Assembly: GCA_964419155.1 (NCBI GenBank) | Contig: CAYQOK010000001.1 | Coordinates: forward strand, 3,623 to 67,622 | From: Candidatus Woesearchaeota archaeon | Lineage (GTDB): Archaea; Nanobdellota; Nanobdellia; Pacearchaeales; GW2011-AR1 | Length of the DNA stretch: 64,000 bases | Reading direction: 5' to 3' | Shown here: in pieces, positions 5,793 to 62,614 of the stretch | Position numbering within the stretch: position 1 is the stretch's first letter | Layout of the letters: every line of letters begins with the position of its first letter | Notes under the pieces: model-generated | Seen by the model: only the letters and a program-made list of their open reading frames with translations | What the model was told of the DNA's origin: nothing | The model's database searches: none | Made by a program: the position numbers and the translations under genes

Positions 5793-5954
5793 ATGACAAA
5801 ACTACCTGCAGCACAAGCAAGATTATCAAAGAATGTTTTTGTATGTAAGAAATGTAAGTTAAAGGTAAGAGCAGAACCATTAAAAATCCTAACAAAAAAA
5901 GTTCAATGTAGGAAGTGTGATGGAAAAGAATTTAGACCTATAAGGAAAAAATAA
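5793..5954 (+). CDS. rpl40e: Ribosomal protein L40e (not in supplied ORF track)
   Basis: Hand translation gives MTKLPAAQARLSKNVFVCKKCKLKVRAEPLKILTKKVQCRKCDGKEFRPIRKK. This is the L40e C4 zinc-ribbon pattern CxxC...CRKCGxxxLRPKK. Confidence 0.8.
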   Translation: MTKLPAAQARLSKNVFVCKKCKLKVRAEPLKILTKKVQCRKCDGKEFRPIRKK

Positions 5955-6003
5955 CTTTTTAGGATTATAGAACATTTAAAAACTGTTTTGATTTGTAATT
6001 AAA

Positions 6004-7407
6004 ATGAACGCATATTATTATGATATTTTTTTTCTAGTAGTATTTAGTATTTCTATAATTTTATTTCTGTATAAAAAAAAGAAGAAATTAACTAAGGATG
6101 GTATTATGTATCTTTATAAAACTCAAATAGGAGTTAAAATAATTGATAAAATTGCTAAAAAAAATAAAAAATTATTAAAAATTACAAGTTATTTTATTTT
6201 AGTTACTGGATATATTTTAATGATTCTAATGGTCTTAATGTTAGCTCAACTTACTTATTTATTTGTCAGCACACCTCAAATTGCGAGAGATATAAAAGTG
6301 CCGCCTCTTATGCCCTTAATACCTTATCTTCCTGAATTATTTAATATTCCATGGCTACCTCCTTTTTATTTTACTTATTGGATAATTGCTATTGCTGTTG
6401 TTGCTATTGTTCATGAAGGGGCTCATGGTGTTTTTTCAAGACTTTATGATATTCCTGTTAAATCAACTGGATTTGGATTTTTAGGCCCTTTCTTAGCATT
6501 TTTTGTTGAACCTGATGAAAAAGAAATGGAAAAATCAAAGATATTTCCTCAACTAAGTATATTAGGGGCAGGAGTTTTTGCAAATGTATTAACAACAATT
6601 ATTTGTTTTTTAGTTATGATATTATTTTTTCATGCAGCTTATTCTCCATCAGGGGTATTATTTAATTCATATAGTTATGAATTAATAGATGGAAAAGATG
6701 TTGTTAATATTACAAATAGTAGTTTAACTATTAATAATGGGCAATCTTTAACTCTTATTAAAATTAAAGCAAACAATAATTACTATTATGTAGAACAATC
6801 TGAACTAGTTAGATTAAATCAAAATGAAATTCAGTCAATTATTGGTTTTAATGATTTTCCTGCAATAAATATTGGTTTAAGAGGGGCAATAACAAAAATT
6901 AATAATCAAAAAGTGACAAATGTAGAAGATTTAAGAGAAGAATTAGATAAATATAATGTTGGAGAAAAAGTTAATTTAACAACTAATTTTGAAGATAAAG
7001 AACTTTTATTTGAAATAGAATTAGAAGAGGACCCAAATCAAGAACAAAAACCAATTTTAGGTGTTGGAGTAATAGGTGCTGAAAAAAAAGGAGTGGGTGG
7101 TTTTGTATATAACCTTATAAATTTATTTAAAGACCCAACAACAGAATATAAACCAAAAGCAAATCCAGAATTAACCTTATTCATATATAATTTATTTTGG
7201 TGGATGGTTTTAATTAATATTAGTGTTGCTCTTGTAAATATGTTGCCTATGGGAATATTTGATGGGGGAAGATTTTTTTATCTGTCAATATTAGCAATAA
7301 CAAAAAAACAAAAATTATCAGAAAGAATATTTAAATTTGCAACCTGGATAATATTATTAATATTTATTATATTAATGTTATATTGGTTTGTTGGATTATT
7401 TATTTAA
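6004..7407 (+). CDS. Site-2 protease family (M50) membrane zinc metalloprotease with PDZ-like insert
   Basis: 'IVHEGAHGVFS' (HExxH) lies in a TM region. Downstream 'LPMGIFDGGRFF' is the LDG motif of M50. Multiple TM helices with a soluble middle domain. Confidence 0.8.
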   Translation: MNAYYYDIFFLVVFSISIILFLYKKKKKLTKDGIMYLYKTQIGVKIIDKIAKKNKKLLKITSYFILVTGYILMILMVLMLAQLTYLFVSTPQIARDIKVPPLMPLIPYLPELFNIPWLPPFYFTYWIIAIAVVAIVHEGAHGVFSRLYDIPVKSTGFGFLGPFLAFFVEPDEKEMEKSKIFPQLSILGAGVFANVLTTIICFLVMILFFHAAYSPSGVLFNSYSYELIDGKDVVNITNSSLTINNGQSLTLIKIKANNNYYYVEQSELVRLNQNEIQSIIGFNDFPAINIGLRGAITKINNQKVTNVEDLREELDKYNVGEKVNLTTNFEDKELLFEIELEEDPNQEQKPILGVGVIGAEKKGVGGFVYNLINLFKDPTTEYKPKANPELTLFIYNLFWWMVLINISVALVNMLPMGIFDGGRFFYLSILAITKKQKLSERIFKFATWIILLIFIILMLYWFVGLFI

Positions 7408-10766: not shown

Positions 10767-10846
10767 GCCTCCATCGCATAATGGTATTGCACCGGCCTTG
10801 AGAGCCGGGCCCTATGGGCTTCCCGGTTCGATTCCGGGTGGGGGCG
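10767..10846 (+). tRNA. tRNA-Ser (anticodon TGA), class II with long variable arm
   Basis: GC-rich island in AT-rich DNA. Acceptor stem GCCTCCA/TGGGGGC with one G-U pair. Anticodon stem CCGGC/GCCGG with loop CTTGAGA. Variable arm GCCCTATGGGC. T-arm CCGG-TTCGATT-CCGG. No encoded CCA. Folded by hand. Confidence 0.65.
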
Positions 10847-11147
10847 CTTTTTTTATAGTATCTTATATTTTTGAAAAAAGCAATGCTTTTTACTTATCCA
10901 CAGAAATTTTAATATCATTCAAATGCAAGAAAAAATATTCTATAAATTACGCCTAATTCTATTCTGACACAAATAAACTAAATTAACTCCCCTATTACCT
11001 GATTCTTCTTCTAAATAATTTAATAATGAAGTTTCAAAAGAAGGGGTAAATAGAAGTTTTTCTTTTCTCTAGCGGCCCTAAATTTATTCTTTAGATCAGT
11101 ATAGTCTTCTTACAAATCTTTTTAAATATTAGTAGTTAGTTAAAGTT

Positions 11148-26934: not shown

Positions 26935-27639
26935 ATGGATAATTTTATTAAAAAGATATTTGATAAAAAAGAAAGTGATGAATTTATGCATCTTCAATTT
27001 CAGAGATTTAGTAAAGGAAGTTTTAAAAATAGAGCACTAATAAAAGCTTCTTGTACTGCTTCTAATAAATATAAAATTCAAACGACTTTTGAATTTGCTA
27101 ATGAGATTGTTAGATTCTGTGCTGAGGATTTAGAAGATGAAAAAACAAACATAAGAGGTATTGTTGTTTCAACAAGAGATTTAACAGGAGAATTAGAATT
27201 TAAAACAAAAAAACAATATATGGGTGTTAAACAATATGGAATCGATGGTTATATGAGTGGAAAAGAGATTATTGAATTATTAAATAAATATCCTGCTGCT
27301 TTTTTTGCATTTTCATTTAAATCAAAGAATATGGAGATAAAAATAAAGGCAAAACCCCCTAAATCAAAACCAAGCACCAAGGGAGATGGGGATATAAAAG
27401 CAGATTTTTGTACAATTACAACAAATAATAAAGAGATAGCGAGAAATTTTATATTTGAATCAGATAATTTTAAAAAAGTAGAAATTATTCATACATTCAT
27501 AATAGAAGATATAATTTTACCTAAAACTGAAGAAGATATTGCAAAAATAAGAGAGCTTGCAAAAAGAAAAGGAAAAATTATAAGAAACTCAAATATTGAT
27601 GGAATCCAAAAAGAGAGTCAAATAGAATTCTTAGCTTAG
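26935..27639 (+). CDS. Hypothetical protein
   Basis: 234 aa, soluble, no motif. Stop codon abuts the repeat element. Confidence 0.3.
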   Translation: MDNFIKKIFDKKESDEFMHLQFQRFSKGSFKNRALIKASCTASNKYKIQTTFEFANEIVRFCAEDLEDEKTNIRGIVVSTRDLTGELEFKTKKQYMGVKQYGIDGYMSGKEIIELLNKYPAAFFAFSFKSKNMEIKIKAKPPKSKPSTKGDGDIKADFCTITTNNKEIARNFIFESDNFKKVEIIHTFIIEDIILPKTEEDIAKIRELAKRKGKIIRNSNIDGIQKESQIEFLA

Positions 27640-27712
27640 AGGCATCGGCTTTGTTTAATAAGTCCTAATTAGTCCATACTTTTTAAACAGCCACTACTTA
27701 TTAAACAAAGCC
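27638..27712. repeat. 9-bp 'agaggcatc' followed by a perfect 16-bp inverted-repeat hairpin (GGCTTTGTTTAATAAG, 34-nt loop, CTTATTAAACAAAGCC)
   Basis: Read directly: arms at 27647-27662 and 27697-27712 are exact reverse complements. The 9-mer at 27638-27646 recurs at 29314-29322. Confidence 0.7.
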
Positions 27713-27760
27713 GTAATTAATCTACCAAATCTATTTAAATAATAAAAAATCAATATTTTT

Positions 27761-28900
27761 ATGAAAATAATCCATGTATGCCCTTTTTCTTCAGGAGGGT
27801 GCGGGGTTTGGGCAAGAGCAAAACAAGAATCATTAGAATTAATAAAAAAAGGCCATGAAGTTTTTGTTTTTTCATCTAATTTAGATAAAGGGACTAATGA
27901 AATTGTCTCAGATTATGAAAATTTAAAAGGAATATTTATTTATCGATTTCCTGCAAAAAAATTAGGTGGCGAAAGCTTTATGGATTGGCTTTCAAAAACC
28001 GCAGAAGAAAAAATAATGCAAATTTCTCCAGATATAATAATTACCCATAATTATAGGCATATTCATACAACCAAGTCCTTAAAAATAAGAGATAAATTAA
28101 CAAAAAAAATTAAAAAATGTAAAATATTTTTAGTAACTCATGCCCCCTTCCCAGAAAAAAATATAACTAGAAGTTTTTTGCAAAAAATAATTGTTTATTG
28201 TTATGATAAATTTATTGGTCCAAGAACGCTAAATAAATTTGATAAAATTTTAGCAATCTCTAATTGGGAAATTCCATTTTTAATAAAATGTGGAGCAAGA
28301 AAAGAAAAAATTATTTACATTCCCAATGGAATTCCTAATGAGTTTTTTAAATTAAAAAAACAAGTAAAAACAGAAAATAAGATAATATTTTTAGGAAGAG
28401 TTGCACCAAAAAAGAAAATAGAAACAATTCTTAGATCTTTTAAATATCTCCAAGATAAAGAAATATTTTTAGAAGTAATCGGGCCCGTTGAAGATAAATA
28501 TTCAAATTATCTTCAGAATCTAATTAAAAAATTAAAAATAGAAAAAAGGGTGAAATTTACTGAGGCGATTTACGATTTAAAAAAGAAAATAGAAAAATTA
28601 GATTCTGGAAAAATTTATATTTTAGCATCAATGGTAGAGGGAATGCCCCAAGGATTAATTGAAGCTATGTCTCGGGAAATGATAGTTATTGGAAGTGATA
28701 GTTTAGCTATTCGGGATATAATCACAAATCATGAAAATGGTTATTTATTTCAATTTGATAACCCTCAAGATTTAGCAAAAAAAATAGATTTAGCATTAAA
28801 AGAAAATAAAATAAATAATCAGATAAAAATAAATGCAAAAAATTTTGTAGAAAAATTCAATTGGGGAAAAATAATAAACTCTATAAATAGATTATTTTAA
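27761..28900 (+). CDS. Glycosyltransferase family 4 (GT-B)
   Basis: C-terminal 'ASMVEGMPQGLIEAMSREMIVIGSD' is the GT4 E-x7-E region. 'FLGRVAPKKK'. Confidence 0.75.
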   Translation: MKIIHVCPFSSGGCGVWARAKQESLELIKKGHEVFVFSSNLDKGTNEIVSDYENLKGIFIYRFPAKKLGGESFMDWLSKTAEEKIMQISPDIIITHNYRHIHTTKSLKIRDKLTKKIKKCKIFLVTHAPFPEKNITRSFLQKIIVYCYDKFIGPRTLNKFDKILAISNWEIPFLIKCGARKEKIIYIPNGIPNEFFKLKKQVKTENKIIFLGRVAPKKKIETILRSFKYLQDKEIFLEVIGPVEDKYSNYLQNLIKKLKIEKRVKFTEAIYDLKKKIEKLDSGKIYILASMVEGMPQGLIEAMSREMIVIGSDSLAIRDIITNHENGYLFQFDNPQDLAKKIDLALKENKINNQIKINAKNFVEKFNWGKIINSINRLF

Positions 28901-28901
28901 A

Positions 28902-29160
28902 ATGATTTCAATAATTATAACTTCGTATAAAGAACCTAATAAAATTGAACTAGATAAAACAGCAGTTGCTAAAGATTTAAGTCTTGAACCCTTAAATGGC
29001 TTTCTTGTTTGCTAAAGACAGAAATTCAGCATTAGAAAGAATAAGAAAACTCGCTAAGGAAGATAGATATTATCGTTGTAAGTCTGTTCGTCTTAATAAA
29101 AAACAAGTTCCGCACAGTTCTGGGTGGAAAACTTGGAAGATTGTAAAGCAAAAATCTTGT
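28902..29160 (+). pseudogene. Remnant of a GT2 glycosyltransferase gene (N-terminal 37 codons, then out-of-frame C-terminal-like piece)
   Basis: 'MISIIITSYKEPNKIE' closely resembles the N-terminus 'MKISIIITSFKESHLIS' of the GT2 at 62615-63529, then hits a stop. A second short frame follows. Confidence 0.35.
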
Positions 29161-29279
29161 TAATACCATTTTCTAAAAATAATAAATGATTTTTAAGTTC
29201 GGAGCAGTTAATAATTTTTTTTTAAAAAATAATATTTTATTTAAACAAAAGAAATTTTTATCCCAAAACTTCTTTACGA

Positions 29280-29322
29280 CTTATTAAACAGAAAGGAATT
29301 ATTAAACAAAGCCAGAGGCATC
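29280..29322. repeat. Partial tandem copies of the right inverted-repeat arm (CTTATTAAACAG / TTATTAAACAAAGCC) followed by 'agaggcatc'
   Basis: Read directly. Mirrors the element at 27638-27712, so the two sites bracket the GT4 gene and GT2 remnant. Confidence 0.6.
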
Positions 29323-29455
29323 AAAAGCTTTATAAATACCTTATTTCTTTGAATATTATAAGTTTCTGATAGCAGTCACTTGTGGACAGGCTCAGGAACA
29401 TGTCTTAACTAGAATTGTTAAGAGTGTTTTCTATCAGAAATAATAAGATATTAAA

Positions 29456-45603: not shown

Positions 45604-48360
45604 ATGGAAGAAGAAAAAATAATTGAACAAAGAAGAAAAAATTTTATTAGTTCATTAAAGAAAAATACTTTTTTAATAACAATTATATTTTTATTAATTG
45701 CCCTAGTTCTCGGAGTTTATATTAGGAGTCTTCCTATGAAGAGTCATGGAGATAATCCTGGTTTGTGGGATATTTCCACTGATTCGTGGACCTTGGGCCC
45801 TGATTTAGATCCTTTTTTGTTTCTAAGATATGCAGAGTTAATTGTAGAACAAGGAAAAATTCCTGAGATAGATACTCTAAGATATGTTCCATTGGGATTT
45901 GAAACTTCAAGAGAAACACAGTTATTACCTTATCTTATTGCATACACTTATAAGTTTTTAAATTTGTTTATGAATCCAACTATTGCTTTTGCAGGAGTTA
46001 TTCTTCCTGTAATTATGTTTGGATTAACTGTGATTGCTTTCTTTTTATTTGTAAGAGAGTTATTTATTGATTTTGAGTTTTTTGAAAAATCAAGGAGGAA
46101 AATAATTGCAAATTCTATTTCACTAATATCTACTTTCTTAATGATTGTTGCACCATCATTTTTATCAAGAACAATTGCTGGAATTCCTGAAAAAGAATCT
46201 GTTAGTTTCTTTTTTATGTTTCTCTGTTTTTATTTATTTTTAAAAGCATGGAAATCTGAAAATAAGAAAAGATTAGTTATTTTTAGTGTTCTTGCTGGTT
46301 TATCAACTGCTGCAATGGGTCTTGTATGGGGTGGTGTTATTTATGTTTTTGTTACAATTTCAGTTTCTTTTTTAATAGGTTTTATATTAAATAAAACAAA
46401 AGAAAAAGAAATATTAGTATATGGAATTTGGTTTTTGGTTTCATTAGCAGGAATATTCTTTTTTACAGATAAATTTTCTTTAAAAGAATTTATTTCATCA
46501 CTTGATACTGGTTTAGCTTTTGTAGTATTTTTTATTTCAATAGTTCATATTATAGTATTAAAAACAAGATTATTAGAAAAAGAAAGTGTTAAGAAAAAAT
46601 TAAAACATCACATGCCTGAAAATTTTGTTTCTTTGGGTATTGCAATATTAATAGGTATTTTAGGTGTTTTGATTTTTTTTGGTCCTGGATTTTTTATTGA
46701 AAAAATAAGTGATTTAAATAGAATTTTATTTAAACCTGTTGAAGGAAGGTGGAATATTACTGTTGCGGAAAACAGACAACCTTATTTTACAGAATGGGTA
46801 GCAAATTTTGGCCCTAATATTAGAAACATTCCATTAATGTTCTGGTTGTTTTTTATTGGATCTGTAGTACTGTTTAATGATACTATTAAAAAATTAGATA
46901 AGAAAGATAAGGCTATATTGATAATACTCTATATATTATTCTTTTTTGGTTTAGTTTTTTCAAGATATTCTGAAGCAAGTTTATTAAATGGGGAAAATCT
47001 CATTAGTAAATTGTTTTATTATGGGACCTCTATATTATTTGGGGTATACTTAGCTTATTCTTATTTTAAATATTCAAAAAAGCAAGAAAATCCATTTGAA
47101 AAAATAAATTATGAAATAATCTTTTTATTTGTTTTATTTGTTTTAACTCTTTTTACAGCAAGGAGTGCTATAAGGCTTATTATGGTTCTTGGGCCAATAT
47201 CTCCTATATTTCCAAGTTATTTAATAGTTTCAAGCATATTTAAACTAAAAAACATTAAAGATGAAACAACAAGAGCTGTTGGATTATTTATTGTTGTTGT
47301 GTTATTATTTTTAATAGCATATATGTTTTTTGTTAATTTTCAAATTATTAAAGCTCAAGCCTCTGTATTTATTCCATCCTCTTATACAAATCAATGGCAA
47401 TTAGCAATGGAATGGGTTAGAGAAAATACTCAAGAAGATGATGTTTTTGCACATTGGTGGGATTATGGATACTGGATTCAATCAATGGCAAAAAGACCAA
47501 CAGTCACGGATGGGGGCAATGCAATAAGCTATTGGAATTATTTAGTTGGAAGATATGTTTTAACCGGAGATAATCAAAAACAAGCACTTGAATTTTTGCA
47601 TACCCATAATGCAGATTATATTTTAATAGATTCTAGTGATATTGGAAAATATACTGCTTTTTCAAGTATTGGAAGCAATAAAGACTATGATAGATTTTCT
47701 TGGGTTCCTATAATGGTATCTTCAAAACAAAAAAATATAGAGACCAGAAATGGAACTACAAGAATATATGAGGGCGGTTCTATTATTGATGAAGATATTT
47801 TATATGGTGAAAATGAAACTAAGATATTTTTACCGCAAGAAAGTTCTGCTATTATTGGGGTCATTATAGAGGTAGAAGAAAATAATGAAAGTATCAAACT
47901 TAAACAACCAAATGGAGTTTATTATTCTAATGGTAAGCAAGAAATTATCCCTTTAAGATATATTTACTATAATAATCAAATTTTTGATTTTAAAAAAGGA
48001 TTAAATGCAACTGCATTTGTTATCCAATTAGCTCAAAGTAATGGAAATCAATTGTTTTTAGATAATCAGGGTGCATTAATGTATTTATCTCCTAGGATGA
48101 TGAAAGGATTATTTGCTCAGTTATATTTACTAAATGATCCTTTTGATAACTTTGATGCATTTAAGTTAGTACATTCAGAAGATAGTATTTTAATTAATTC
48201 AGTAAATAAGCAAGGTGCTGATTTAAATGAATTTGTTTATTATGGTGGTGGTATTCAGGGGCCAATAAAAATATGGGAAGTTAATTATAAAGGTGATGAA
48301 GTAGTAAATCCTGATTGGCTTTTAACAACACAACCTAATTATATTGATTGGAAATTTTAA
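45604..48360 (+). CDS. aglB: Oligosaccharyltransferase AglB/STT3
   Basis: 'HWWDYGYWIQ' (WWDYG motif). 13 N-terminal TM helices plus a soluble C-terminal domain. Confidence 0.9.
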   Translation: MEEEKIIEQRRKNFISSLKKNTFLITIIFLLIALVLGVYIRSLPMKSHGDNPGLWDISTDSWTLGPDLDPFLFLRYAELIVEQGKIPEIDTLRYVPLGFETSRETQLLPYLIAYTYKFLNLFMNPTIAFAGVILPVIMFGLTVIAFFLFVRELFIDFEFFEKSRRKIIANSISLISTFLMIVAPSFLSRTIAGIPEKESVSFFFMFLCFYLFLKAWKSENKKRLVIFSVLAGLSTAAMGLVWGGVIYVFVTISVSFLIGFILNKTKEKEILVYGIWFLVSLAGIFFFTDKFSLKEFISSLDTGLAFVVFFISIVHIIVLKTRLLEKESVKKKLKHHMPENFVSLGIAILIGILGVLIFFGPGFFIEKISDLNRILFKPVEGRWNITVAENRQPYFTEWVANFGPNIRNIPLMFWLFFIGSVVLFNDTIKKLDKKDKAILIILYILFFFGLVFSRYSEASLLNGENLISKLFYYGTSILFGVYLAYSYFKYSKKQENPFEKINYEIIFLFVLFVLTLFTARSAIRLIMVLGPISPIFPSYLIVSSIFKLKNIKDETTRAVGLFIVVVLLFLIAYMFFVNFQIIKAQASVFIPSSYTNQWQLAMEWVRENTQEDDVFAHWWDYGYWIQSMAKRPTVTDGGNAISYWNYLVGRYVLTGDNQKQALEFLHTHNADYILIDSSDIGKYTAFSSIGSNKDYDRFSWVPIMVSSKQKNIETRNGTTRIYEGGSIIDEDILYGENETKIFLPQESSAIIGVIIEVEENNESIKLKQPNGVYYSNGKQEIIPLRYIYYNNQIFDFKKGLNATAFVIQLAQSNGNQLFLDNQGALMYLSPRMMKGLFAQLYLLNDPFDNFDAFKLVHSEDSILINSVNKQGADLNEFVYYGGGIQGPIKIWEVNYKGDEVVNPDWLLTTQPNYIDWKF

Positions 48361-48397
48361 ATGTAAAATTTAAAAGTATTGAATTCTAAATAAATTA

Positions 48398-49426
48398 ATG
48401 GATTATAATTTGATAATTTCATTAATCATAAGTCTTTGTTTGGTTTTAATTGTAATGCCTAGATGGATTAGAAAAACAAAAGAAATAAATTTTATCTGGA
48501 AAGATATGAATAAACCACATAATAATGATTTAGAAACAAAATGGGTTTCAGGTTCAGGGGGTATTGTGGTTTGTTTTTCTTTTATTATTGGGGTCTTATC
48601 TTATATTGCAATTAGAACTTTTTTAATTCAAACTCAGGAAAATACAATTGAAATTTTTGCATTACTAACTACTATATTAATTACCTTATTAGTTGGTTTT
48701 ATTGATGATGTTTTTGGATGGGAAAGAAAAGGATTGGCTATGAGAGTTAGAATTCTTTTAGTAATGGTTGCAGCAATCCCCTTAATGGTTATAAATGCGG
48801 GAGTTTCTTTTATTAATATTCCATTAATAGGTTTAATTGATGTTGGAATCCTTTATGCTATTTTTTTAATACCCTTAGGTGTTGTTGGTGCAGCTACCAC
48901 TTATAATTTTTTAGCTGGTTTTAATGGACTTGAAGCTGGACAAGGAATTATTATTTTAAGTTTTTTATCAATGGTAGCATATTTAACAGATTCAAGTTGG
49001 TTAGCGGTTATTGGTCTTTGTATGGTTTCGAGTTTAATTGGTTTTTATTATTTTAATAAAGTTCCAGCAAAAGTATTTCCAGGAGATGTATTAACATACT
49101 CTATTGGTGCATTAATTGCAGGAATGGCAATATTAGGAAATTTTGAAAAAATAGCTGTGTTTGTATTTATTCCTTATATTTTTGAAGTAATATTTAAGGT
49201 TAGGGGTAAATTAAAAAAACATTCTTTTGGAAAAGTTTTAGAAGATGGAAGTTTAGAAATGCCTTATGATAAAATCTATGGTTTAGAACATTTTTCAATT
49301 TATTTTTTAAAGAATTTTATAAAAAAGAAGAAAGTATATGAAAAAGATGTTGTTTATTTTATTTTTTCAATACAAATATTAATTTGTATATTTGCTGTTT
49401 TTATTTTTAAAGGGGCATTAGTTTAA
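48398..49426 (+). CDS. Polyprenyl-phosphate HexNAc-1-phosphate transferase (MraY/WecA/GPT family, AglH-like)
   Basis: 'LVGFIDDVFGW', 'NFLAGFNGLEAG' and 'VFPGDVLTYSIGALIAG' correspond to the three conserved cytoplasmic-loop motifs of the family. Confidence 0.8.
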   Translation: MDYNLIISLIISLCLVLIVMPRWIRKTKEINFIWKDMNKPHNNDLETKWVSGSGGIVVCFSFIIGVLSYIAIRTFLIQTQENTIEIFALLTTILITLLVGFIDDVFGWERKGLAMRVRILLVMVAAIPLMVINAGVSFINIPLIGLIDVGILYAIFLIPLGVVGAATTYNFLAGFNGLEAGQGIIILSFLSMVAYLTDSSWLAVIGLCMVSSLIGFYYFNKVPAKVFPGDVLTYSIGALIAGMAILGNFEKIAVFVFIPYIFEVIFKVRGKLKKHSFGKVLEDGSLEMPYDKIYGLEHFSIYFLKNFIKKKKVYEKDVVYFIFSIQILICIFAVFIFKGALV

Positions 49427-49427
49427 A

Positions 49428-50660
49428 ATGAATTATATTCAAAGATTTTTAAAAAGTGATGTTGGAAAAGGGAGCCTTATTCTTTTTATTTTAATTAATA
49501 TTTATAATGTTATTAATTATTTATTTCATTTTTCAATGGCAAGGTTACTTAGTCCAGGCAATTATGCTATAATTGCTTCTATGTCTTCTCTTATCTACAT
49601 TTACACAGCTCCTGTTGAAGCTATACAAGGAATACTTTCAAATTATTCCACTCAGTTTAGTTCTGAGCTTGGAAAAATAAAAAATCTTTGGAAAAAAAGC
49701 ACAAAAAAAGGACTAATATATTCTATTAGTATCTTTATATTACTTTTTCCATTTTGTTTTTTTTTATCTAATTACCTCAATATTCCTTTTTGGGCATTAG
49801 TTTTAACAAATTTTACATTTGTTTTAATTGTTTTAGTTTCAATTAATAGGGGAATCTTACAAGGGAAAAAGCGATTTTATGGTTTGGGTATTAGTCTTAT
49901 AACAGAATCTTTAATTAAACTTGTTTTTGCTTGTGCTCTTGTTTTAATTGGTTTTAGTTATTTTGGAGCCTTAACTGGAATTTTAATTGGATTACTTCTT
50001 GGATTTGTTTTTTCATTTTATTTTTTAAAAGATATTCTAATCTCAAAAGAAGAAGAATCAAAAACACCTAATATCAAAGAGTATAGTTTTTCATTTACCG
50101 GAGCAATGATTGTAGTTGTTTTAATGTATAGTTTAGATATTTTATTAGCAAAAAGATTTTTTTCACCTGAAATTGCTGGAAAATTTGCTGTTTTATCAAT
50201 GCTTGGGAAAATGATTTTTTTTGGAACAATTCCAATTAGTAAAGCCATGTTTCCGATTTGTTCTGAAAGATATTATAAAAAACAAAAAACAAAAACAGTA
50301 TTTATTAAATCATTTTTAGGAATAGCAACATTATGTATTTTAGCAAGTACTTGTTTTTTAATTATACCTTCTCTTATAATTAAAATATTATTTGGTAATC
50401 AGTATTTAGATGTAGCAGATTCTCTTTTTTATGTTGGTATGGCTTATTCATTTCTTGCATTATCTAATAATGTTTTGTTTTATGGGCTTTCGATTAATAA
50501 ATTTAAAAAACCTTATTATTTATCAATTTTTTTAATAATGCAAATTGTTTTGTTATATTTATTTAACTCAACCATAATGCAGTTTTCATTAGCATTAATG
50601 AGCTCAAATGCAATAATGTTTTTATGTTTACTCTTATTAATATTATTTAAAAGAAAATGA
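49428..50660 (+). CDS. Wzx/AglR-like polysaccharide flippase
   Basis: 410 aa, about 12 TM helices, no soluble domains. Located between the GPT and a Dol-P-sugar synthase. Confidence 0.5.
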   Translation: MNYIQRFLKSDVGKGSLILFILINIYNVINYLFHFSMARLLSPGNYAIIASMSSLIYIYTAPVEAIQGILSNYSTQFSSELGKIKNLWKKSTKKGLIYSISIFILLFPFCFFLSNYLNIPFWALVLTNFTFVLIVLVSINRGILQGKKRFYGLGISLITESLIKLVFACALVLIGFSYFGALTGILIGLLLGFVFSFYFLKDILISKEEESKTPNIKEYSFSFTGAMIVVVLMYSLDILLAKRFFSPEIAGKFAVLSMLGKMIFFGTIPISKAMFPICSERYYKKQKTKTVFIKSFLGIATLCILASTCFLIIPSLIIKILFGNQYLDVADSLFYVGMAYSFLALSNNVLFYGLSINKFKKPYYLSIFLIMQIVLLYLFNSTIMQFSLALMSSNAIMFLCLLLLILFKRK

Positions 50661-51457
50661 AAAAAATAGCTATAATTATTCCTGCTTATAATGAAGAAAA
50701 AAGAATTAGAAAAACACTTAATGAATATTGTAGATATTTTGAAAAAAGTAAATTTTCTAAAACAGATGTTAAGATAATTGTTGTTGCAAATAATTGTAAT
50801 GATAAAACAGTTAAAATACTTGAAGAATTAAAAAAGAAATTTGAGAACTTAGAATATCTTGATTTAGAAAAGGGTGGAAAAGGTTTTGCAATTACAGAGG
50901 GATATGTTTATGCACTAAAAAAAGATTATGATTTTATTGGTTTTGTTGATGCTGATTTAGCTACTTCTCCAAAAGAATTTAATAAATTGATAAACAGCTT
51001 AGTTCAATCTAGTTTTGATGGGGTTATAGCAGACAGATATATTAAAGGATCTAAAGTCTATCCTTCTTTTGGTTTTAGGAGAATTGTTGTTAGTAGAATT
51101 TTTAATTTTATCGTAAGAGCCTTGTTTTTATTTTCTTATAGAGATACACAATGTGGTGCAAAACTATTTAAAAAAGATGTTATTAAAAAGGTCATTAAAG
51201 AAATAACAATTAGTCAATGGGCTTATGATATTGGATTCTTATATGCTTGTAAAAAAAATGGTTTTAAAATAAGGTCTATTCCAACTGTTTGGTATGAAAT
51301 GCCTGATAGTAAATTGAATATCAGTAAAGCTTCTGTTGAAATGTTCTTTGCAGTAATTCAATTAAAAATTCTTGTATCAAGATTTAAAAGGCTATTGACC
51401 CCAATAAAACCATTGATTTCAATAATTTATAAATATCTTAAAAACAGAAATAATTAA
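50657..51457 (+). CDS. GT2 dolichyl/polyprenyl-phosphate sugar synthase (DPM1-like)
   Basis: 'IAIIIPAYNEEKRI', 'GFVDADLATSPKEF' (DxD) and 'TQCGAKLFKKDV' match the DPM1 family QCGFK block. Confidence 0.75.
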   Translation: MKKIAIIIPAYNEEKRIRKTLNEYCRYFEKSKFSKTDVKIIVVANNCNDKTVKILEELKKKFENLEYLDLEKGGKGFAITEGYVYALKKDYDFIGFVDADLATSPKEFNKLINSLVQSSFDGVIADRYIKGSKVYPSFGFRRIVVSRIFNFIVRALFLFSYRDTQCGAKLFKKDVIKKVIKEITISQWAYDIGFLYACKKNGFKIRSIPTVWYEMPDSKLNISKASVEMFFAVIQLKILVSRFKRLLTPIKPLISIIYKYLKNRNN

Positions 51458-51464
51458 AGATATA

Positions 51465-52577
51465 ATGGAAAATAAAAAAACATTTTTAATTTTAGGGAGT
51501 TTGCAGGCCCCTTTAACAGGTTCTAAGATTAGAAGTAGGTCAATTGCAAAATATTTAGCAAAAAGAGGCCATAAGGTAATTTATTTAGAACCTACTGATC
51601 CTAATTCAAAGGAAAATCTTAAAATTAAAGGGGTAAAAATAATAAAAACCAAATTTCCAAATTTGATTTTTAGTTTAGGAATGATTATTGCAAGTATTGA
51701 TAATCTTTTAAAAGTAAAAAAAGTAAAAAAAGTAGATTATGTTATTGCAACAAAACCCCTTCCTAGTTCTTGTTTAGCTGCATTAAAATTAAGAAATAAA
51801 GATACTAAAATAATTTTAGATATTGATGATTTAGAATATGCTTATTGGTTAAACAACAAACCCATTGCTTATCTTTTAAAAATATTTGAAAAATGGGTTA
51901 TAAAAAGATTTGATTATATCACAGTCCATAATAATTCATTAAGAAGATATGTTGAAAAAAGCCTTAAAATCCCATCTGAAAAAATATTATTCTTATCTCA
52001 GGGATTGGATCTAGACCATTACACTGTTAGGACTAAGAATAATTTTAAGAATAAAAACCAGATATTAATTGTTTATACTGCTTTTTTAGGTATTGCCTCA
52101 GATTTAATTCCTATATTAGAGGTATATAAAAACGCAAAAAAACAATTTAATAATATTAAACTAATTGTGGTTGGGGGCGGCCCTAAATTAAAAGAGTATA
52201 AGAGGTATTGTAAAAGAAACCACGTCCCTGTTTTATTTTTAGGTTATAAAGACCATAATGAGACTTTAAAAATTTTAAAATTTGCGGATATTACATTAAA
52301 TTATAATAAAAAAAATTTTGCAAATAAATTCAGATCCCCTATAAAATTAAGGGAATACATTCTCTTAGGTAAAGAGGTTGTAACAACAGATATAGGAGAT
52401 ACTGCATTATTTAAAAGATATATTTATATATCCAAGAATAATTTAAATGATTATCTTCTATGTCTTAAAAAGGCAATTAAAGTTAAAAAAAATATCAATG
52501 GGCCAGACTATATAAAAAAAGAGTGTGATTGGGATAAAATAATTAATAAATTTTTAAAAGATTTAAATGAAAAATAA
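51465..52577 (+). CDS. GT-B glycosyltransferase (GT4-like)
   Basis: 'LIVVGGGPKLKEYKRY' and 'LREYILLGKEVVTTDIGDTA' resemble the GT4 C-terminal half. Confidence 0.5.
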   Translation: MENKKTFLILGSLQAPLTGSKIRSRSIAKYLAKRGHKVIYLEPTDPNSKENLKIKGVKIIKTKFPNLIFSLGMIIASIDNLLKVKKVKKVDYVIATKPLPSSCLAALKLRNKDTKIILDIDDLEYAYWLNNKPIAYLLKIFEKWVIKRFDYITVHNNSLRRYVEKSLKIPSEKILFLSQGLDLDHYTVRTKNNFKNKNQILIVYTAFLGIASDLIPILEVYKNAKKQFNNIKLIVVGGGPKLKEYKRYCKRNHVPVLFLGYKDHNETLKILKFADITLNYNKKNFANKFRSPIKLREYILLGKEVVTTDIGDTALFKRYIYISKNNLNDYLLCLKKAIKVKKNINGPDYIKKECDWDKIINKFLKDLNEK

Positions 52578-54015
52578 AAAAATTTTGGTTATAAATCCTC
52601 CAAGGGTGGATCAAAGACCGGTAGTAAGAGAAGAAAGATTTGAACATAAGGATTTTGAAGTTATTTATCCCCCTTTAACTCTACTTTATTGTGCTGGACA
52701 AATAAAGAAGAACGTAAGTAATGTAGAAGTATCTTTTATTGATGCAATGGGATATAATCTTAATTTAGATCAAATAAAAGAAAAGTTTAAGATTATAAAT
52801 CCTGATATTGTTATAAGCAGGTTTGCTTTTGATACTTTTCATGAAGATCTTAGTTTTTTAGAAGAAATTAAAAAATGGAAAAAAGATATTATAGTTCTAA
52901 CTAGGAATAAAATTGTAGGAGATGTTAATGATTTAATTGAAAAATATCTCAAAAAATATCCTAAAATTGATTATTTTATCACTTCTGAACAAGATATTGT
53001 GATCCATAAAATAATAAAAGATATTTTAAATAAAAAAATTCCTGGCTCTTGCGCGTATATTAAAAAAAATAAATTATTCTTTTCAGAAAAGTATAAAGAA
53101 GATGAAAGTTTAGATGAAATGGCTTTTCCAGCATATGAATTATTACCTAAATCTCCTTGGCCTTATAAAAGTTCATTATTTCCAAAGGACTTTACATTAG
53201 TTATGAGTAGTAGAGGGTGTCCAAATCAATGTACTTTTTGTGCATATAGAAATCAAAAATGGAGGCCTAGAAGTCCTGAAAATGTAGTTGAAGAATTAAA
53301 GATGTTAAGAAAAAAATATAATATTAAAAATTTTGTTTATTTTGATGACACTATTTCTATAAATAAAGAAAGGTGTTTAAAAATTTGCGAATTAATGAAA
53401 GAAAATGGATTAACCGATATGAAATATGCTATTTGTACAAGAGTGAATGCAATTGATGTAGAGTTATTAAAAGCCTGGAAAGAAACAGGCTTAGAAGAGA
53501 TCTCATTTGGAGTAGAATCTGGATCTGAAAAAATATTAAAAATGACTCGCAAGGGTATAACTAAAAAACAAATCCTAAATGCTTTTGATTTGTGTAAGAA
53601 AATGAAAATAAAGGCCATTACATTAGTTATTTTAGGACTTCCTGGGGAAACCTTGAACACTATAAATGAAACAAAAGGGCTAATTAAAAAAATAAATCCT
53701 TTTTATTTACAATACTCTTTGTGTATTCCTTTTCCAAATACTCCTGCATATGATTATTATAAACAGAATAATCTTTTAATTCATGAGGATTATTCAAAAT
53801 ATAATCCCTTAACCCTGGATCCTGTTATGAGGACAAAAGATTTAAGTGCAGAACAATTAATAAAAGAAAAAGAAAAAGCATATAAGGAATTCATATTAAA
53901 CCCTAGATTTTTTTTAAATAAGATCTCCTTAACTGATTGGGCCTGGAATATTAGGGGATTAAAAATGTTCTTAGATAGGGTTAAAGGAATAATAAAAGAA
54001 AAGTATGTTAGATAA
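52567..54015 (+). CDS. B12-binding-domain radical SAM enzyme (class-B-like), paralog 1
   Basis: N-terminal Rossmann-like 'KILVINPP...YPPLTLLYCAG', then 'SSRGCPNQCTFCAY' (CxxxCxxC). 482 aa. Confidence 0.8.
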   Translation: MKNKKILVINPPRVDQRPVVREERFEHKDFEVIYPPLTLLYCAGQIKKNVSNVEVSFIDAMGYNLNLDQIKEKFKIINPDIVISRFAFDTFHEDLSFLEEIKKWKKDIIVLTRNKIVGDVNDLIEKYLKKYPKIDYFITSEQDIVIHKIIKDILNKKIPGSCAYIKKNKLFFSEKYKEDESLDEMAFPAYELLPKSPWPYKSSLFPKDFTLVMSSRGCPNQCTFCAYRNQKWRPRSPENVVEELKMLRKKYNIKNFVYFDDTISINKERCLKICELMKENGLTDMKYAICTRVNAIDVELLKAWKETGLEEISFGVESGSEKILKMTRKGITKKQILNAFDLCKKMKIKAITLVILGLPGETLNTINETKGLIKKINPFYLQYSLCIPFPNTPAYDYYKQNNLLIHEDYSKYNPLTLDPVMRTKDLSAEQLIKEKEKAYKEFILNPRFFLNKISLTDWAWNIRGLKMFLDRVKGIIKEKYVR

Positions 54016-55048
54016 AATGACAGATCAAACAAAAATTAAATATAGCATTATTATTCCAGTTTATAATTCTCAGGGAACAATTTTAGAATTATTAAATGCA
54101 TTAGAAAATCAAACAAAAAAAGATTTTGAGGTAATTATTGTTGATGATGGTTCTAAAGATAATTCACTTGAGTTAATCAGGGCGCATAAAAAAAATAAAA
54201 AAATTAATTATCCTATTAAATTAATCAAACAAGAAAATGCAGGACCTGCTAAAGCAAGAAATGTTGGAGCAAAACATGCTGCAGGAGATATTATTATTTT
54301 TATTGATTCTGATTGTGTTCCTACTAATGATTTTATCGAGAAAATAACCCTTCCAATTGAGTTACATAAAAATATATCTGGAGTTCAAGGGGAGTATTTA
54401 ACAAAAAATAAAGAATATTTAATTGCAAGATATGTTGGCTATGAAATTTATTATAGGCATGAGAGAATGAAGGGAAAAAATATTGATCATATTGCAACTT
54501 ATGCTTGCTTGTATAAAAAAGAAGATTTTGGAGAAGGATTTTTAGAAAAATTTTCTAGTGCAGATATGGAAGACACTGAATTCTCTTATAGAATCTCAAA
54601 AAGTGGAAAGAGATTAATTTTTGAGCCAAATGCAGTGGTTTTCCATCCCCATCCCCATAATTTAAAGAAATTTATTAAACAACAATTTAAAAGAGGTTAT
54701 TGGAGAGCTTTTGGATATGGAGGTCATCAAGAAAAAATCTTTAAGGATTCTTATATGGGAAGCTCTGTTGTTATTCAGGGAAGTTTAAGTCTTTTATTTT
54801 TTATTAGTTTATTTATTTCTGTATTAGAACTATTTTTAAAGATTAATAACTTTTTTTTATTCATTCCTCTGATTTTATTAGCTATGATTTATATCACAAA
54901 TCTAGGTTTTGGATTTTACTGTTATAGGTATGAAAAAAATATGATTTTTATTGCACCTTTAATTGCATCAATAAGATCTTTAGCTGGAACCGCTGGTTTT
55001 ATTAAGGGTGTTTGCTCTAAAATTTTAAGGAAATATAAAATTAGGTGA
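54005..55048 (+). CDS. GT2 glycosyltransferase with C-terminal TM helices
   Basis: 'YSIIIPVYNSQGTI', 'VIIVDDGSKDNS' and 'IIFIDSDCVP' (DxD). Two to three C-terminal TM segments. Confidence 0.7.
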   Translation: MLDKMTDQTKIKYSIIIPVYNSQGTILELLNALENQTKKDFEVIIVDDGSKDNSLELIRAHKKNKKINYPIKLIKQENAGPAKARNVGAKHAAGDIIIFIDSDCVPTNDFIEKITLPIELHKNISGVQGEYLTKNKEYLIARYVGYEIYYRHERMKGKNIDHIATYACLYKKEDFGEGFLEKFSSADMEDTEFSYRISKSGKRLIFEPNAVVFHPHPHNLKKFIKQQFKRGYWRAFGYGGHQEKIFKDSYMGSSVVIQGSLSLLFFISLFISVLELFLKINNFFLFIPLILLAMIYITNLGFGFYCYRYEKNMIFIAPLIASIRSLAGTAGFIKGVCSKILRKYKIR

Positions 55049-55055
55049 AGTTAAA

Positions 55056-56513
55056 ATGAAAGTTTTTTATTTGATTCCACAATATGTAAAAGGGTTTAGT
55101 AAATCATCTAGATGGCAAACTATCAGTAGAGGATATACATTAAGACATCCTGATTTTCAACTACAATCTGTTGCTGTTTTAGAAGAATCTGGTCATAAGG
55201 TTAAATTTTGTGATGCAACTGCTGAAAAAATTGAAAAAAAATTGGTTTTTGAAAAAATAAAAAAATTTAATCCAGATATGTTAGTAGTGTATTGTACAAC
55301 CCCTAGTATTTATGATGATCTATCTTATATTCAGGAGTTTAAAAAAAAATATCCTAATGCAATTAGTGTAGTTATTGGAGCTCATGTTTCAGTTGAGTGG
55401 GAGGATACATTAAAAATTGCTGGACCTAGTTTAGATGTAGTAGTTATAGGAGAATATGATTATAGTTTAAGAGATCTTGCTAATAAAGTTTCATTAGAAA
55501 AATGTAAGGGTATTGTTTATCAAAAAAATAAAAAAATAAAAATAAATGCTCCAAGACCTCCAGTACCTATTAATGAACTTCCTTTTCCTGCATGGTATCA
55601 TATTAAACCAGAAGATTATCCAGATCCTGGTAAATTAAATCCTTTTATTACTATTATTGGTAGTAGGGGGTGTGTTGGAAGATGTGCTTTTTGTTTAATG
55701 ACTAATACGCTTTATAAAACATTAAGATTAAAAGATCCAAAAAAGATTTGTGATGAAATTGAATATGATCTTAAATTATTCCCTTATTTAAAAGAAATTA
55801 TGTTTGAAGACGATACCTTAGGTGCAATATCTAAACATACTAATGAAGTTTGTGATGAAATAATTAAAAGAAAATTAAATAAAAAAGTTTCATTTGCATG
55901 TAATCTAAGAGTAGACACAAAAAAAGAATTAATCAAAAAATTAAAACAAGCAGGATTTAGATGGGCTTGTGTTGGATTTGAGTTTGGAACTAATAAATCT
56001 CTAAAGGCTGTTAGAAAAACAACAACAATTGAACAAGCTAAAGAATTTGCAAAAGAAACTGCAAAACAAGGTCTAAAGATTCATGGATGTTTTATGTTTG
56101 GGGCTCCGGGTGAAACAAAAGAAGATTGTAGAAAGACTATTGATTTTGCTAAATCATTGCCATTAGATACTGTTCAGTTTTCAGGTATTGCTGTTTATCC
56201 TGGAACTCCTTTATATGACTGGGCTAAACAAAATAATTATCTTGTTCCAAAAAACTGGAGGAACTGGGTTACTGAAGATTATAAACAAGCAGGTTTACTA
56301 GATTACCCTCAACTTTCAACAGAAGATATAAATAAATTTATTGATATTGGATTAAAAGAATGGTATGGTAGGCCTAAACAAATTTTGAGATTAGGATTTA
56401 AGGTTTTGAAGAATAAAGGAGAACGAAAAAGAATAATACATGGATTTAAAAGTTGGATAAAACTTTATTCTCCAAGCCCGAAAATTTACAAAGTTGGAGG
56501 CTACAATGAATAA
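55056..56513 (+). CDS. B12-binding-domain radical SAM enzyme (class-B-like), paralog 2
   Basis: 'GSRGCVGRCAFCLM' (CxxxCxxC) preceded by a Rossmann-like N-domain. 485 aa. Same architecture as 52567-54015 but clearly diverged. Confidence 0.8.
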   Translation: MKVFYLIPQYVKGFSKSSRWQTISRGYTLRHPDFQLQSVAVLEESGHKVKFCDATAEKIEKKLVFEKIKKFNPDMLVVYCTTPSIYDDLSYIQEFKKKYPNAISVVIGAHVSVEWEDTLKIAGPSLDVVVIGEYDYSLRDLANKVSLEKCKGIVYQKNKKIKINAPRPPVPINELPFPAWYHIKPEDYPDPGKLNPFITIIGSRGCVGRCAFCLMTNTLYKTLRLKDPKKICDEIEYDLKLFPYLKEIMFEDDTLGAISKHTNEVCDEIIKRKLNKKVSFACNLRVDTKKELIKKLKQAGFRWACVGFEFGTNKSLKAVRKTTTIEQAKEFAKETAKQGLKIHGCFMFGAPGETKEDCRKTIDFAKSLPLDTVQFSGIAVYPGTPLYDWAKQNNYLVPKNWRNWVTEDYKQAGLLDYPQLSTEDINKFIDIGLKEWYGRPKQILRLGFKVLKNKGERKRIIHGFKSWIKLYSPSPKIYKVGGYNE

Positions 56514-58452: not shown

Positions 58453-59101
58453 TGAAGAAAAAACAATTCTAGAAGTTATTCAAAGAGTTAAAGATTTAAA
58501 ATTAGGAATAGAAAAAGAGATAATTGTGGTTGATGATGGTTCTAAAGATAATAGTTATAAGCTTGCTAAAACTATGAATGGCATAATTTTGTTAAAACAT
58601 AAAAAAAATCTTGGAAAGGGCGCAGGTTTTAAAACTGCATTAAAACAATCAACGGGAGAGATTATTATAATCCAAGATGCAGATATGGAACTAGATCCTA
58701 TAGAAATATCTAAGGTTATAAAACCAATATTAGATGGAAAAAGTGAAGTAGTTTATGGATCAAGAAATCTGCATAATCCTGGAAAAGATAGAAGTCCTTT
58801 ATTTTATTTTGGAGGTTATTTTCTAACAAAAATAGTTAACTTTCTTTATGGGACTAAATTAACTGATGAACCTTGTGGGTATAAGGCATTTAAAACTAAA
58901 ACAATAAAACAAATTAAAATTAAAGCAAATCGTTTTGAATGGGAACCTGAAGTAACAGCAAAATTATCTAAAAAAAATATTAAGATCATTGAAGTTCCAG
59001 TTTCTTCAGTTTCAAGATCTATAAAAGAGGGTAAAAAATTAAGAAGAAGAGATGGAGTAATTGCCCTTTTAACTTTAATGAGATATAGATTTAAAGATTG
59101 A
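58421..59101 (+). CDS. GT2 polyprenyl-phosphate sugar synthase (DPM1/GtrB-like)
   Basis: 'LTIVIPVYNEEKTI', 'IIVVDDGSKDNS', 'IIIQDADMELDP' and 'EPCGYKAFKTK'. Start placed at the internal ATG at 58421. Confidence 0.75.
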   Translation: MKLTIVIPVYNEEKTILEVIQRVKDLKLGIEKEIIVVDDGSKDNSYKLAKTMNGIILLKHKKNLGKGAGFKTALKQSTGEIIIIQDADMELDPIEISKVIKPILDGKSEVVYGSRNLHNPGKDRSPLFYFGGYFLTKIVNFLYGTKLTDEPCGYKAFKTKTIKQIKIKANRFEWEPEVTAKLSKKNIKIIEVPVSSVSRSIKEGKKLRRRDGVIALLTLMRYRFKD

Positions 59102-59132
59102 TTTCTAGAATAATAATATTTAATAGTCTAAG

Positions 59133-60260: not shown

Positions 60261-60266
60261 TGAGGC

Positions 60267-61796: not shown

Positions 61797-61885
61797 AAAT
61801 TAATTATATAATTAAGGTTTTTAATGTTTTGTGCTTGATAGATTATAAAGAAAAGGATTAAAAAGAAAGTTTATTAATAAAGAAG

Positions 61886-62613: not shown

Positions 62614-62614
62614 T

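Follow-up and report, generated by a model that had tools for sequence, protein, structure and literature searches.

A glycosyltransferase gene in a 1,667-bp insertion upstream of an archaeal L3 operon: a probable mobile insertion cassette of an IS903-like transposon family

Introduction

The insertion sequence (IS) IS903 of enterobacterial plasmids, a member of the IS903 group in the IS5 family, makes 9-bp target duplications. Prokaryotes also carry MITEs, miniature transposable elements with inverted repeats, and composites built from them, such as the Tn3-derived TIME composites. The term mobile insertion cassette (MIC) has been defined in work on MIC231 of Bacillus cereus, which is mobilized in trans by the transposase of IS231A (PMC3913671); other MICs are the qnrD and qnrS2 "mic" elements. 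Cargo transposons that spread defense genes include Tn7-like elements (Benler et al. 2021, PMC8649781). A 2019 survey gives transposons with passenger genes as undetected in archaea (PMC6563490), and a 2026 census of archaeal IS elements makes no mention of IS903, SWIM, or passenger genes. Here we describe a 1,667-bp element at positions 27647-29313 of a 64,000-nt stretch of the archaeal contig CAYQOK010000001.1 (the window, 26.8% G+C), situated just upstream of the operon that begins with the gene for ribosomal protein L3. We conclude, with a probability of roughly 0.88, that it is a non-autonomous DNA transposon of the mobile-insertion-cassette type and belongs to an IS903-like (IS5-family) family that is abundant in DPANN archaea.

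The element shares with MICs its bracketing by inverted repeats of a single family, the absence of a transposase gene inside it or nearby, a target duplication, an empty site in relatives (where, it must be noted, the corresponding 9-mer differs at four positions), and a functional-looking passenger gene. It departs from MIC231 in being IS5/IS903-like rather than IS4/IS231, in having an archaeal host, in that its mobilization in trans is a proposal, and in possessing an extra, complete inner right end, such that one side of the cassette is an entire 66-nt miniature element. That 66-nt unit, noncoding and equipped with transposon ends, is reminiscent of MITEs, and the placement of cargo between a miniature element and another end of the family recalls their composites; in contrast to TIME-type composites, the second boundary is a solo end and not a second miniature element. 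The element as a whole, at 1,667 bp and protein-coding, is not a MITE. Nor is it a composite transposon, there being no IS copy on either side but only ends. Neither does the locus fit a simple IS roughly 1 kb long whose single gene encodes the transposase, as all 27 complete relatives carry passengers and the window element has no transposase.

The insertion and its empty site

Two sites flank the element. At the left, the 9-mer AGAGGCATC (27638-27646) is followed by GGCTTTGTTTAATAAG (27647-27662), a spacer of 34 nt, and CTTATTAAACAAAGCC (27697-27712). At the right, CTTATTAAACAG (29280-29291) is followed by AAAGGAA (29292-29298), TTATTAAACAAAGCC (29299-29313), and a second copy of AGAGGCATC (29314-29322). 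A sequence-only reading of the window had described this arrangement, direct repeats outside inverted repeats at 27638-27712 and 29280-29322, and all of its motifs are present base for base. Exact searches of the window return the 9-mer at just these two locations, and the 16-mer GGCTTTGTTTAATAAG only as the two arms of the left site, with one further match, at one mismatch, at 29298-29313. Because base composition predicts only about 9e-5 copies of the 16-mer and 0.05 copies of the 9-mer per window, a chance origin of the motifs is excluded. The outer pair, 27647-27666 with 29294-29313, is complementary at 19 of 20 positions, exceeding the inner 16-bp pair, and 29279-29313 is an 83% direct copy of 27678-27712; the site therefore contains one left end and two right ends.

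Four Logan contigs (L001-L004), from four SRA runs, lack the segment 27647-29313 altogether. They were reached through P0001, a 99%-identical relative of the 234-aa protein encoded to the left of the element, and they match the window at 98.4-99.7% identity up to position 27638 and again from 29320. The spacing between the 234-aa gene and L3 is 141 nt in these contigs vs. 1,817 nt in the window, and the 1,676 extra bases equal the 1,667-bp element plus one 9-bp repeat. The junction flanks are closely preserved, with 80 nt identical at the left and, at the right, a single difference located 64 nt away. The segment 27647-29313 is a polymorphic insertion between the 234-aa gene and the L3 operon. 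The sequence-only reading had suggested a transposon-like insertion with target-site duplication, and had pointed to relatives in which the gene at 26935-27639 might run straight into the L3 leader; it does so in all four contigs, and the first suggestion is borne out both by this empty site and by the 9-bp duplications found beside related ends elsewhere.

The insertion point lies between the stop codon of the 234-aa gene (TAG, 27637-27639), which overlaps the first two bases of the duplication, and AAAAGCTTTATAAATA, which resembles a B recognition element and TATA box of the L3 operon. The duplication allows AAAAGCTTTATAAATA to keep its original upstream bases. Promoter and leader are intact after insertion. 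The right flank that comprises them (29323-29455, plus strand) is the same in the empty-site contigs except for one single-nucleotide difference at 29386, and within it AAAAGC TTTATAAATA, at 29323-29338, is the probable archaeal-type promoter of the operon, judging from its sequence. Integration targeted to a tRNA gene was considered and rejected; the sole tRNA of the window is at 10767-10847. A degenerate pattern for filled and empty junctions had no match in JGI metagenomes, from which the species is seemingly absent, and look-up of the exact sequences of the 234-aa protein, the cargo glycosyltransferase, and L3 found no identical entry in the collection searched.

Element ends and the miniature element

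Full-length relatives of the element, described below, have two distinguishable ends, which we term upstream-type (5' of the transposase gene) and downstream-type (3' of it). Read inward, the upstream-type end is GGCTTTGTxxAAxAAGT, about 6 nt, and a direct repeat, (C/T)TGTxxAAAAAGT, while the downstream-type end is GGCTTTGTxxAAxAAGT, about 14 nt, and an inverted ACTTTTTAA. Viewed along the full element, these inner motifs form a direct repeat. This asymmetric architecture is conserved in the family, and the three ends in the window all fit it. The left end, IRL (27647-27686, plus strand), is downstream-type, with terminal GGCTTTGTTTAATAAGT, 14 nt, and inverted inner ACTTTTTAA. It is identical at 38 of 40 positions to the downstream end of L087, at 37 of 40 to that of L048, and at 16 of 18 to the IS903 inverted repeat GGCTTTGTTGAATAAATC. 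The inner right end, IRR1 (27678-27712, minus strand), is upstream-type and reads, inward from 27712, GGCTTTGTTTAATAAGT AGTGGC TGTTTAAAAAGT; it agrees at 35 of 35 positions with the upstream ends of L087 and L012. The outer right end, IRR2 (29279-29313, minus strand), likewise upstream-type, reads inward from 29313 as GGCTTTGTTTAATAAT TCCTTT CTGTTTAATAAGT and matches the L069 transposon's upstream end at 90% identity across 41 nt. The duplication flanks the tips at 27647 and 29313, and IRR2 is the right end that was used together with IRL for insertion. The two arms of the 16-bp palindrome noted in the sequence-only reading are not the pair used for this insertion; that pair is made up of the left tip at 27647 and the second right tip at 29313.

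IRL and IRR1 overlap through their common ACTTTTTAA and together make up a unit of 66 nt (27647-27712). By its sequence, the 16-bp palindrome with its 34-nt loop is recognizable as a miniature transposon (MITE), in which a left-type and a right-type end appear fused at the shared subterminal motif. A deletion between the inner direct repeats of a full-length element would leave tip, inner motif, and tip, a total of 66 nt, and may be the route by which such units arise. A metagenome scan for similar units found 18 loci (L126-L143), with 14 units exactly 66 nt long, 12 of which have a 9-bp duplication at zero or one mismatch (perfect at 10 loci). The copy at L128, which differs from the window unit at only 3 of 66 positions, has a duplication. 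These findings indicate that the miniature elements move on their own. The window unit has no duplication of its own, being flanked by AGAGGCATC and GTAATTAAT.

The 14 units keep their length though their termini co-vary by subfamily (GTTT, GTGT, GTTA, GTAA), and a fixed minimal architecture seems to be maintained. The length is fixed because both ends are fused at the shared inner motif. Two further loci from the scan hold degenerate arrays of ends, L127 at 7217-7391 and L133 at 5937-6111, in each of which a span of 175 nt holds one left tip and, after it, three right tips, and no clean duplication is present; these recall the layout of one left and two right ends in the window.

The transposon family

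The core GGCTTTGTTTAATAA, with up to three mismatches allowed, occurs as inverted pairs enclosing one transposase gene in one viral contig and in 26 of the 80 best loci, which were fetched and examined from more than 507 returned by a scan of reference genomes, one genome per species. The resulting 27 complete elements (26 plus L042) range from 3,020 to 9,041 bp. Each has a perfect 9-bp direct repeat outside its ends, and every one carries passengers, two to seven open reading frames (ORFs) spanning 1.7-7.8 kb. The records name DPANN archaea, Methanomicrobia, Acidobacteriota, Chloroflexota, and Alphaproteobacteria as hosts; the labels are those of metagenome-assembled genomes, for which binning errors are possible. 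The complete 3.9-kb element at L042 128-4052, with the 9-bp duplication TACAGAAAG, has genes for a DDE_Tnp_1 protein of 419 aa, a C5 DNA methylase, and an HNH nuclease. When viral contigs were scanned with a 17-mer, the matches were mainly due to chance but included four true relatives, L042 among them, and further viral-contig scans with two end patterns added almost nothing. Contigs classed as viral that bear family members are L042 (IMGVR_UViG_3300022860_000148), L012, L031, and L144; viruses may serve as vehicles for the family, unless the contigs are cellular DNA that was wrongly classified.

The transposase of the family, about 415 aa in length, has an N-terminal SWIM-like zinc finger, CxC...CxH, followed by a DDE domain. 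The finger motif is invariant among the transposase homologs examined. Homologs number more than 6,000, mostly named from Nanoarchaeota, Pacearchaeota, and Woesearchaeota. The L042 transposase matches Pfam DDE_Tnp_1 at 1.6e-24, with a weak SWIM match, and scores 153.4 bits on NCBIfam model NF033579 (cutoff 140) over profile positions 2-288 of 289. Two other transposases of the family score 137.9 and 108.4 bits, below the cutoff, yet with NF033579 still the best model. The IS903 transposase itself scores 353 bits. BLASTP aligns the L042 and IS903 transposases at 26% identity over 312 columns (E = 1e-14). For these comparisons, the IS903 reference was a sequence that matched thousands of plasmids at 100%, annotated there as 'IS5-like element IS903 family transposase'; its inverted repeat, taken from Klebsiella pneumoniae plasmid NZ_CP031809, is identical to the family tip GGCTTTGTTTAATAAGTC at 16 of 18 positions.

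The family resembles IS903 in ends that begin with GGC and are similar to the IS903 inverted repeat, in its 9-bp duplication, in its best NCBIfam model, and in a transposase that aligns over nearly the full IS903 protein. It is, however, more than a plain IS of the IS903 type. IS903 is 1,057 bp in length (L045 1201-2257), with one gene and no cargo, whereas the family elements run to 3.0-9.0 kb and contain passengers. Their transposase is about 100 aa longer and has the SWIM-like zinc finger at its N terminus, and their ends are asymmetric, with a second subterminal motif. The window element, in addition, lacks a transposase. No published description of this transposon family was found in the literature searched, which did not cover ISfinder.

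Restriction-modification and other defense genes predominate among the 103 passenger ORFs of the 27 complete elements. Pfam identifies N6_Mtase in 11 of these ORFs, Eco57I in eight, MmeI_Mtase in five, HSDR_N_2 in four, C5 DNA methylase, Methylase_S, and ResIII in three each, and MunI, GmrSD_N, and AEP-TOTE in one each. In this freight the full-length relatives are like the defense-carrying Tn7-like elements; they are unlike them in relying on a single-protein DDE transposase of the IS5 family and in being far smaller (3-9 kb), and neither TnsABC-type machinery nor a fixed attachment site was seen in the family elements examined. In five full-length transposons a large type IIG restriction-modification gene (N6_Mtase plus Eco57I) starts 1-4 nt before the transposase stop (L053 9215, L058 4505, L071 9242, L072 9239, and L073 9206), a closeness that suggests translational coupling of the transposase and the restriction-modification enzyme.

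No passenger ORF among the 103 resembles the GT4 glycosyltransferase borne by the window element. The idea, put forward in the sequence-only reading, of hairpin attachment sites that shuffle glycosyltransferase genes thus finds no support, the cargo of the family being chiefly restriction-modification genes and the supposed attachment hairpin being, by its sequence, a miniature transposon. The further copies of the motifs for which it proposed to search do exist in large number, as transposon ends with 9-bp duplications, and none of those in the 27 complete elements surrounds GT4-like cargo. The cognate enzyme it envisaged is likewise to be found in family members, as a DDE transposase of the IS5 family and IS903 type rather than a recombinase.

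Cargo

Moving rightward from the miniature element, the window element consists of a GT4 gene with its putative promoter, the start of a GT2 gene (13 codons), a segment of 331 nt, and the second right end. The region upstream of the GT4 gene (27713-27760, plus strand) has a TATA-like box, TATTTAAATA, at 27731-27740, about 26 nt before the ATG, and this is likely to be the promoter element of the gene. The GT4 gene (27761-28900, plus strand) is intact and encodes 379 aa, with Pfam matches to Glycos_transf_1 (PF00534, 8.5e-32) and Glyco_transf_4 (PF13439, 1.6e-12). Its homologs match over their full length, and its relatives reside in glycosyltransferase clusters. At the nucleotide level, homology to such clusters in Pacearchaeota-like contigs extends from 27726 to about 28947 (79% identity to L006, 71% to L007). 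The match to L006 begins 35 nt before the GT4 start codon and covers 1,154 nt. The homologous span takes in the TATA-like box, the complete GT4 gene, and 13 codons at the start of the gene after it.

That next gene survives as a 5' stump (28903-28947, plus strand), matched by blastn and tblastx to L007 7158-7206. About 13 of its codons (28903-28941) are homologous, MISIIITSYKEPN vs. MISIIITAYKEPK in L007, after which homology ends; the gene that follows the orthologous GT4 in L007 is a GT2 (PF00535, 6.3e-18). The cargo had been called from the sequence a GT4 glycosyltransferase plus a decayed GT2 fragment. Pfam confirms the former, and the latter is real, though tiny. Neither blastn nor tblastx finds a counterpart to the remaining segment, 28948-29278, in the fetched loci or elsewhere in the window, and the 55-aa ORF it contains (28996-29163) has no Pfam or NCBIfam match and no detectable relatives.

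The homologous span traces the cargo back to a glycosyltransferase cluster. Since the best relative of the GT4 protein, P0121, is just 74% identical, vs. 99% for the best relative of the neighboring 234-aa protein, the cargo fits a derivation from another lineage, with unsampled closer relatives as an alternative. The window also contains, at 45604-63529, a protein N-glycosylation cluster that encodes AglB/STT3, a Glycos_transf_4 (PF00953) protein, a flippase-like Polysacc_synt protein, two PMT_2 proteins, a GT4 with a GT4-conflict match, and a GT2. A 33%-identical paralog of the cargo GT4 is included in this cluster. The host therefore already has machinery into which a mobile GT4 could feed.

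Proposed mechanism and the points against it

The absence of a transposase from the window is clear. The family transposase finds no match by tblastn in the whole 64 kb, and Pfam detects no transposase or recombinase among the ORFs of the element or the 35 window ORFs scanned, in keeping with the earlier suggestion of a non-autonomous mobile cassette. We infer mobilization in trans. A family transposase encoded elsewhere would bind and synapse the left tip at 27647 and the outer right tip at 29313, and, in the manner of IS903, would insert the entire segment at a staggered cut of 9 bp made between the 234-aa gene's stop codon and the L3-operon promoter; gap repair would then yield the duplication of AGAGGCATC. 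The presence of the inner right end, IRR1, implies that the cassette may have been put together from a miniature element and one additional right end, with the cargo presumably arriving between the two right ends. In one option, part of a glycosyltransferase cluster in a donor lay between a miniature element and another element. In the other, a miniature element sat inside an element with cargo, and the transposase was lost when the left ends of the two recombined. Either option is compatible with the data.

Several points weigh against the reading of the element as a mobile insertion cassette of this family. No autonomous copy that could supply a cognate transposase is present in the 64-kb window. 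The homolog search found no second copy of the GT4 cassette that would point to repeated movement of the cassette itself. The rise of a complete IRR1 beside the left end is inferred, not observed. The 9-mer in all four empty sites is AATGATATC, where both copies in the window are AGAGGCATC, a difference at four of nine positions; a simple insertion into an L001-type allele therefore fails to give the duplication observed. The four differences fall within 5 nt, with the nearest other single-nucleotide differences 281 nt and 64 nt away. As gap repair is unable to alter both copies identically, the target at the time of insertion must have been AGAGGCATC.

A target preference for the GC-rich sequence AGAGGCATC was examined and rejected: at 35 other insertions, GC content is 0.38 in the duplications vs. 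0.36 in the flanks (Wilcoxon p = 0.95). The next closest relative, L005 (62% aa identity), was of no use as an outgroup for the 9-mer, its spacer not being alignable. The empty allele (L001 1219-1227) holds a perfect 8-bp palindrome, TGATATCA, exactly at the position of the duplication, and we offer the speculation that this is the footprint of an excision at the site followed by snap-back repair. If true, it would be natural evidence of cut-and-paste activity. At L076 (3984/3994) and L113 (10392/10402), two members of the family adjoin, their tips separated by exactly 9 bp, as though a single 9-bp target had served twice. At L072 14296/14305, a partial second tip (GCTTTGTTAAGTT) directly follows the 9-bp repeat.

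Alternative explanations

The alternative that survives best, improbable as we judge it, is decay in place: a full-length autonomous transposon would have inserted and made the duplication, and would later have lost its transposase on site, for example by recombination of its own left end with the left end of a nested miniature element. The layout of L042, downstream end, transposase, cargo, and upstream end, is that of the window element with the transposase added, and nested or abutting ends of the family do exist (L127/L133, L076, L113). Two extra events, however, a nested insertion and then a deletion, are needed. No transposase remnant is detected by tblastn, and little time was available, since relatives about 99% identical have the empty site. 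The present nature of the element would be the same by either history.

A far smaller chance attaches to an assembly chimera, by which a contig with glycosyltransferase genes was joined into the ribosomal-protein region. The sequence is evidently derived from a metagenome, and the flanks have close relatives where the cargo has none. A chimera, however, would not place a perfect 9-bp duplication immediately outside genuine transposon tips, nor would it become collinear again, to the base, with the empty-site contigs, and nine bases are too few to mislead an assembler.

Hardly any weight can be given to a site-specific recombination cassette, in which the palindromes would be hairpin attachment sites (of the integron attC type, or att sites of a tyrosine or serine recombinase) and the 9-mer a crossover core. 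The 66-nt palindrome does directly follow an ORF and fold as a hairpin, and identical direct repeats flank the insert. But the flanking 9-mers are different at each of the 35 other insertions of the same ends, and this variation marks target duplication, not a fixed core. The ends are always accompanied by a DDE transposase and never by an integrase in the loci examined, the empty site holds no copy of the motif, and the scanned window ORFs include no recombinase. An integron cassette or similar site-specific module is rejected on the same two grounds, the variable 9-mers and the nature of the associated enzyme. Just as implausible is a palindrome that arose by chance, or a hairpin that serves the 234-aa gene as terminator or stabilizer, in the vicinity of unrelated repeats: despite the perfect 16-bp stem directly after the stop codon, the structure is missing at that position in relatives whose flanks are 98.4-99.7% identical, has an expected chance occurrence of about 1e-4, and recurs as a 66-nt unit in unrelated contexts with 9-bp duplications.

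Significance

As a mobile insertion cassette, the window element adds a new archaeal example to the class, and its construction from a miniature element and a second right end is unusual. It seems to stem from a variant of the IS903 group that carries cargo and is so far undescribed. A broader proposal, which we advance tentatively and at less than even odds, is that the element is the visible tip of a very abundant and undescribed "SWIM-DDE" family of IS903-like transposons that routinely moves restriction-modification and other defense genes, with genes for surface glycans as an occasional load, among members of the DPANN, other archaea, and bacteria, with some copies on contigs called viral. 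DPANN archaea have tiny genomes, and their gene exchange is poorly known. The locus offers a clean polymorphic case of one surface-glycosylation gene transposed into a core chromosomal region with the neighboring promoter undamaged, and its ends lead to a large family for which restriction-modification systems are the normal freight. The spread of defense and cell-surface genes, possibly between archaea, bacteria, and viruses, becomes directly testable. The 66-nt element, as a minimal substrate, should be convenient for transposase biochemistry.

Neighboring features

The 234-aa gene at the left of the insertion (26935-27639, plus strand, from the ORF list) encodes a conserved DPANN protein with 431 homologs at E <= 0.001, the best being the 99%-identical P0001, and it has no match in Pfam or NCBIfam. 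One JGI record labels it hypoxanthine-guanine phosphoribosyltransferase. The gene lies directly upstream of the L3 operon in the window and in L001-L005. L3 itself starts at 29456 (Pfam Ribosomal_L3, 8.9e-62). An Rfam search of the palindrome and the L3 leader returned nothing except one sub-threshold chance match. The 5' leader of L3 contains a long hairpin at 29362-29441 (GTTTCTGATAG...CTATCAGAAA), with a folding energy of -24.5 kcal/mol and z = -3.0, that is conserved in the empty-site relatives and may be an autoregulatory leader of the ribosomal-protein type.

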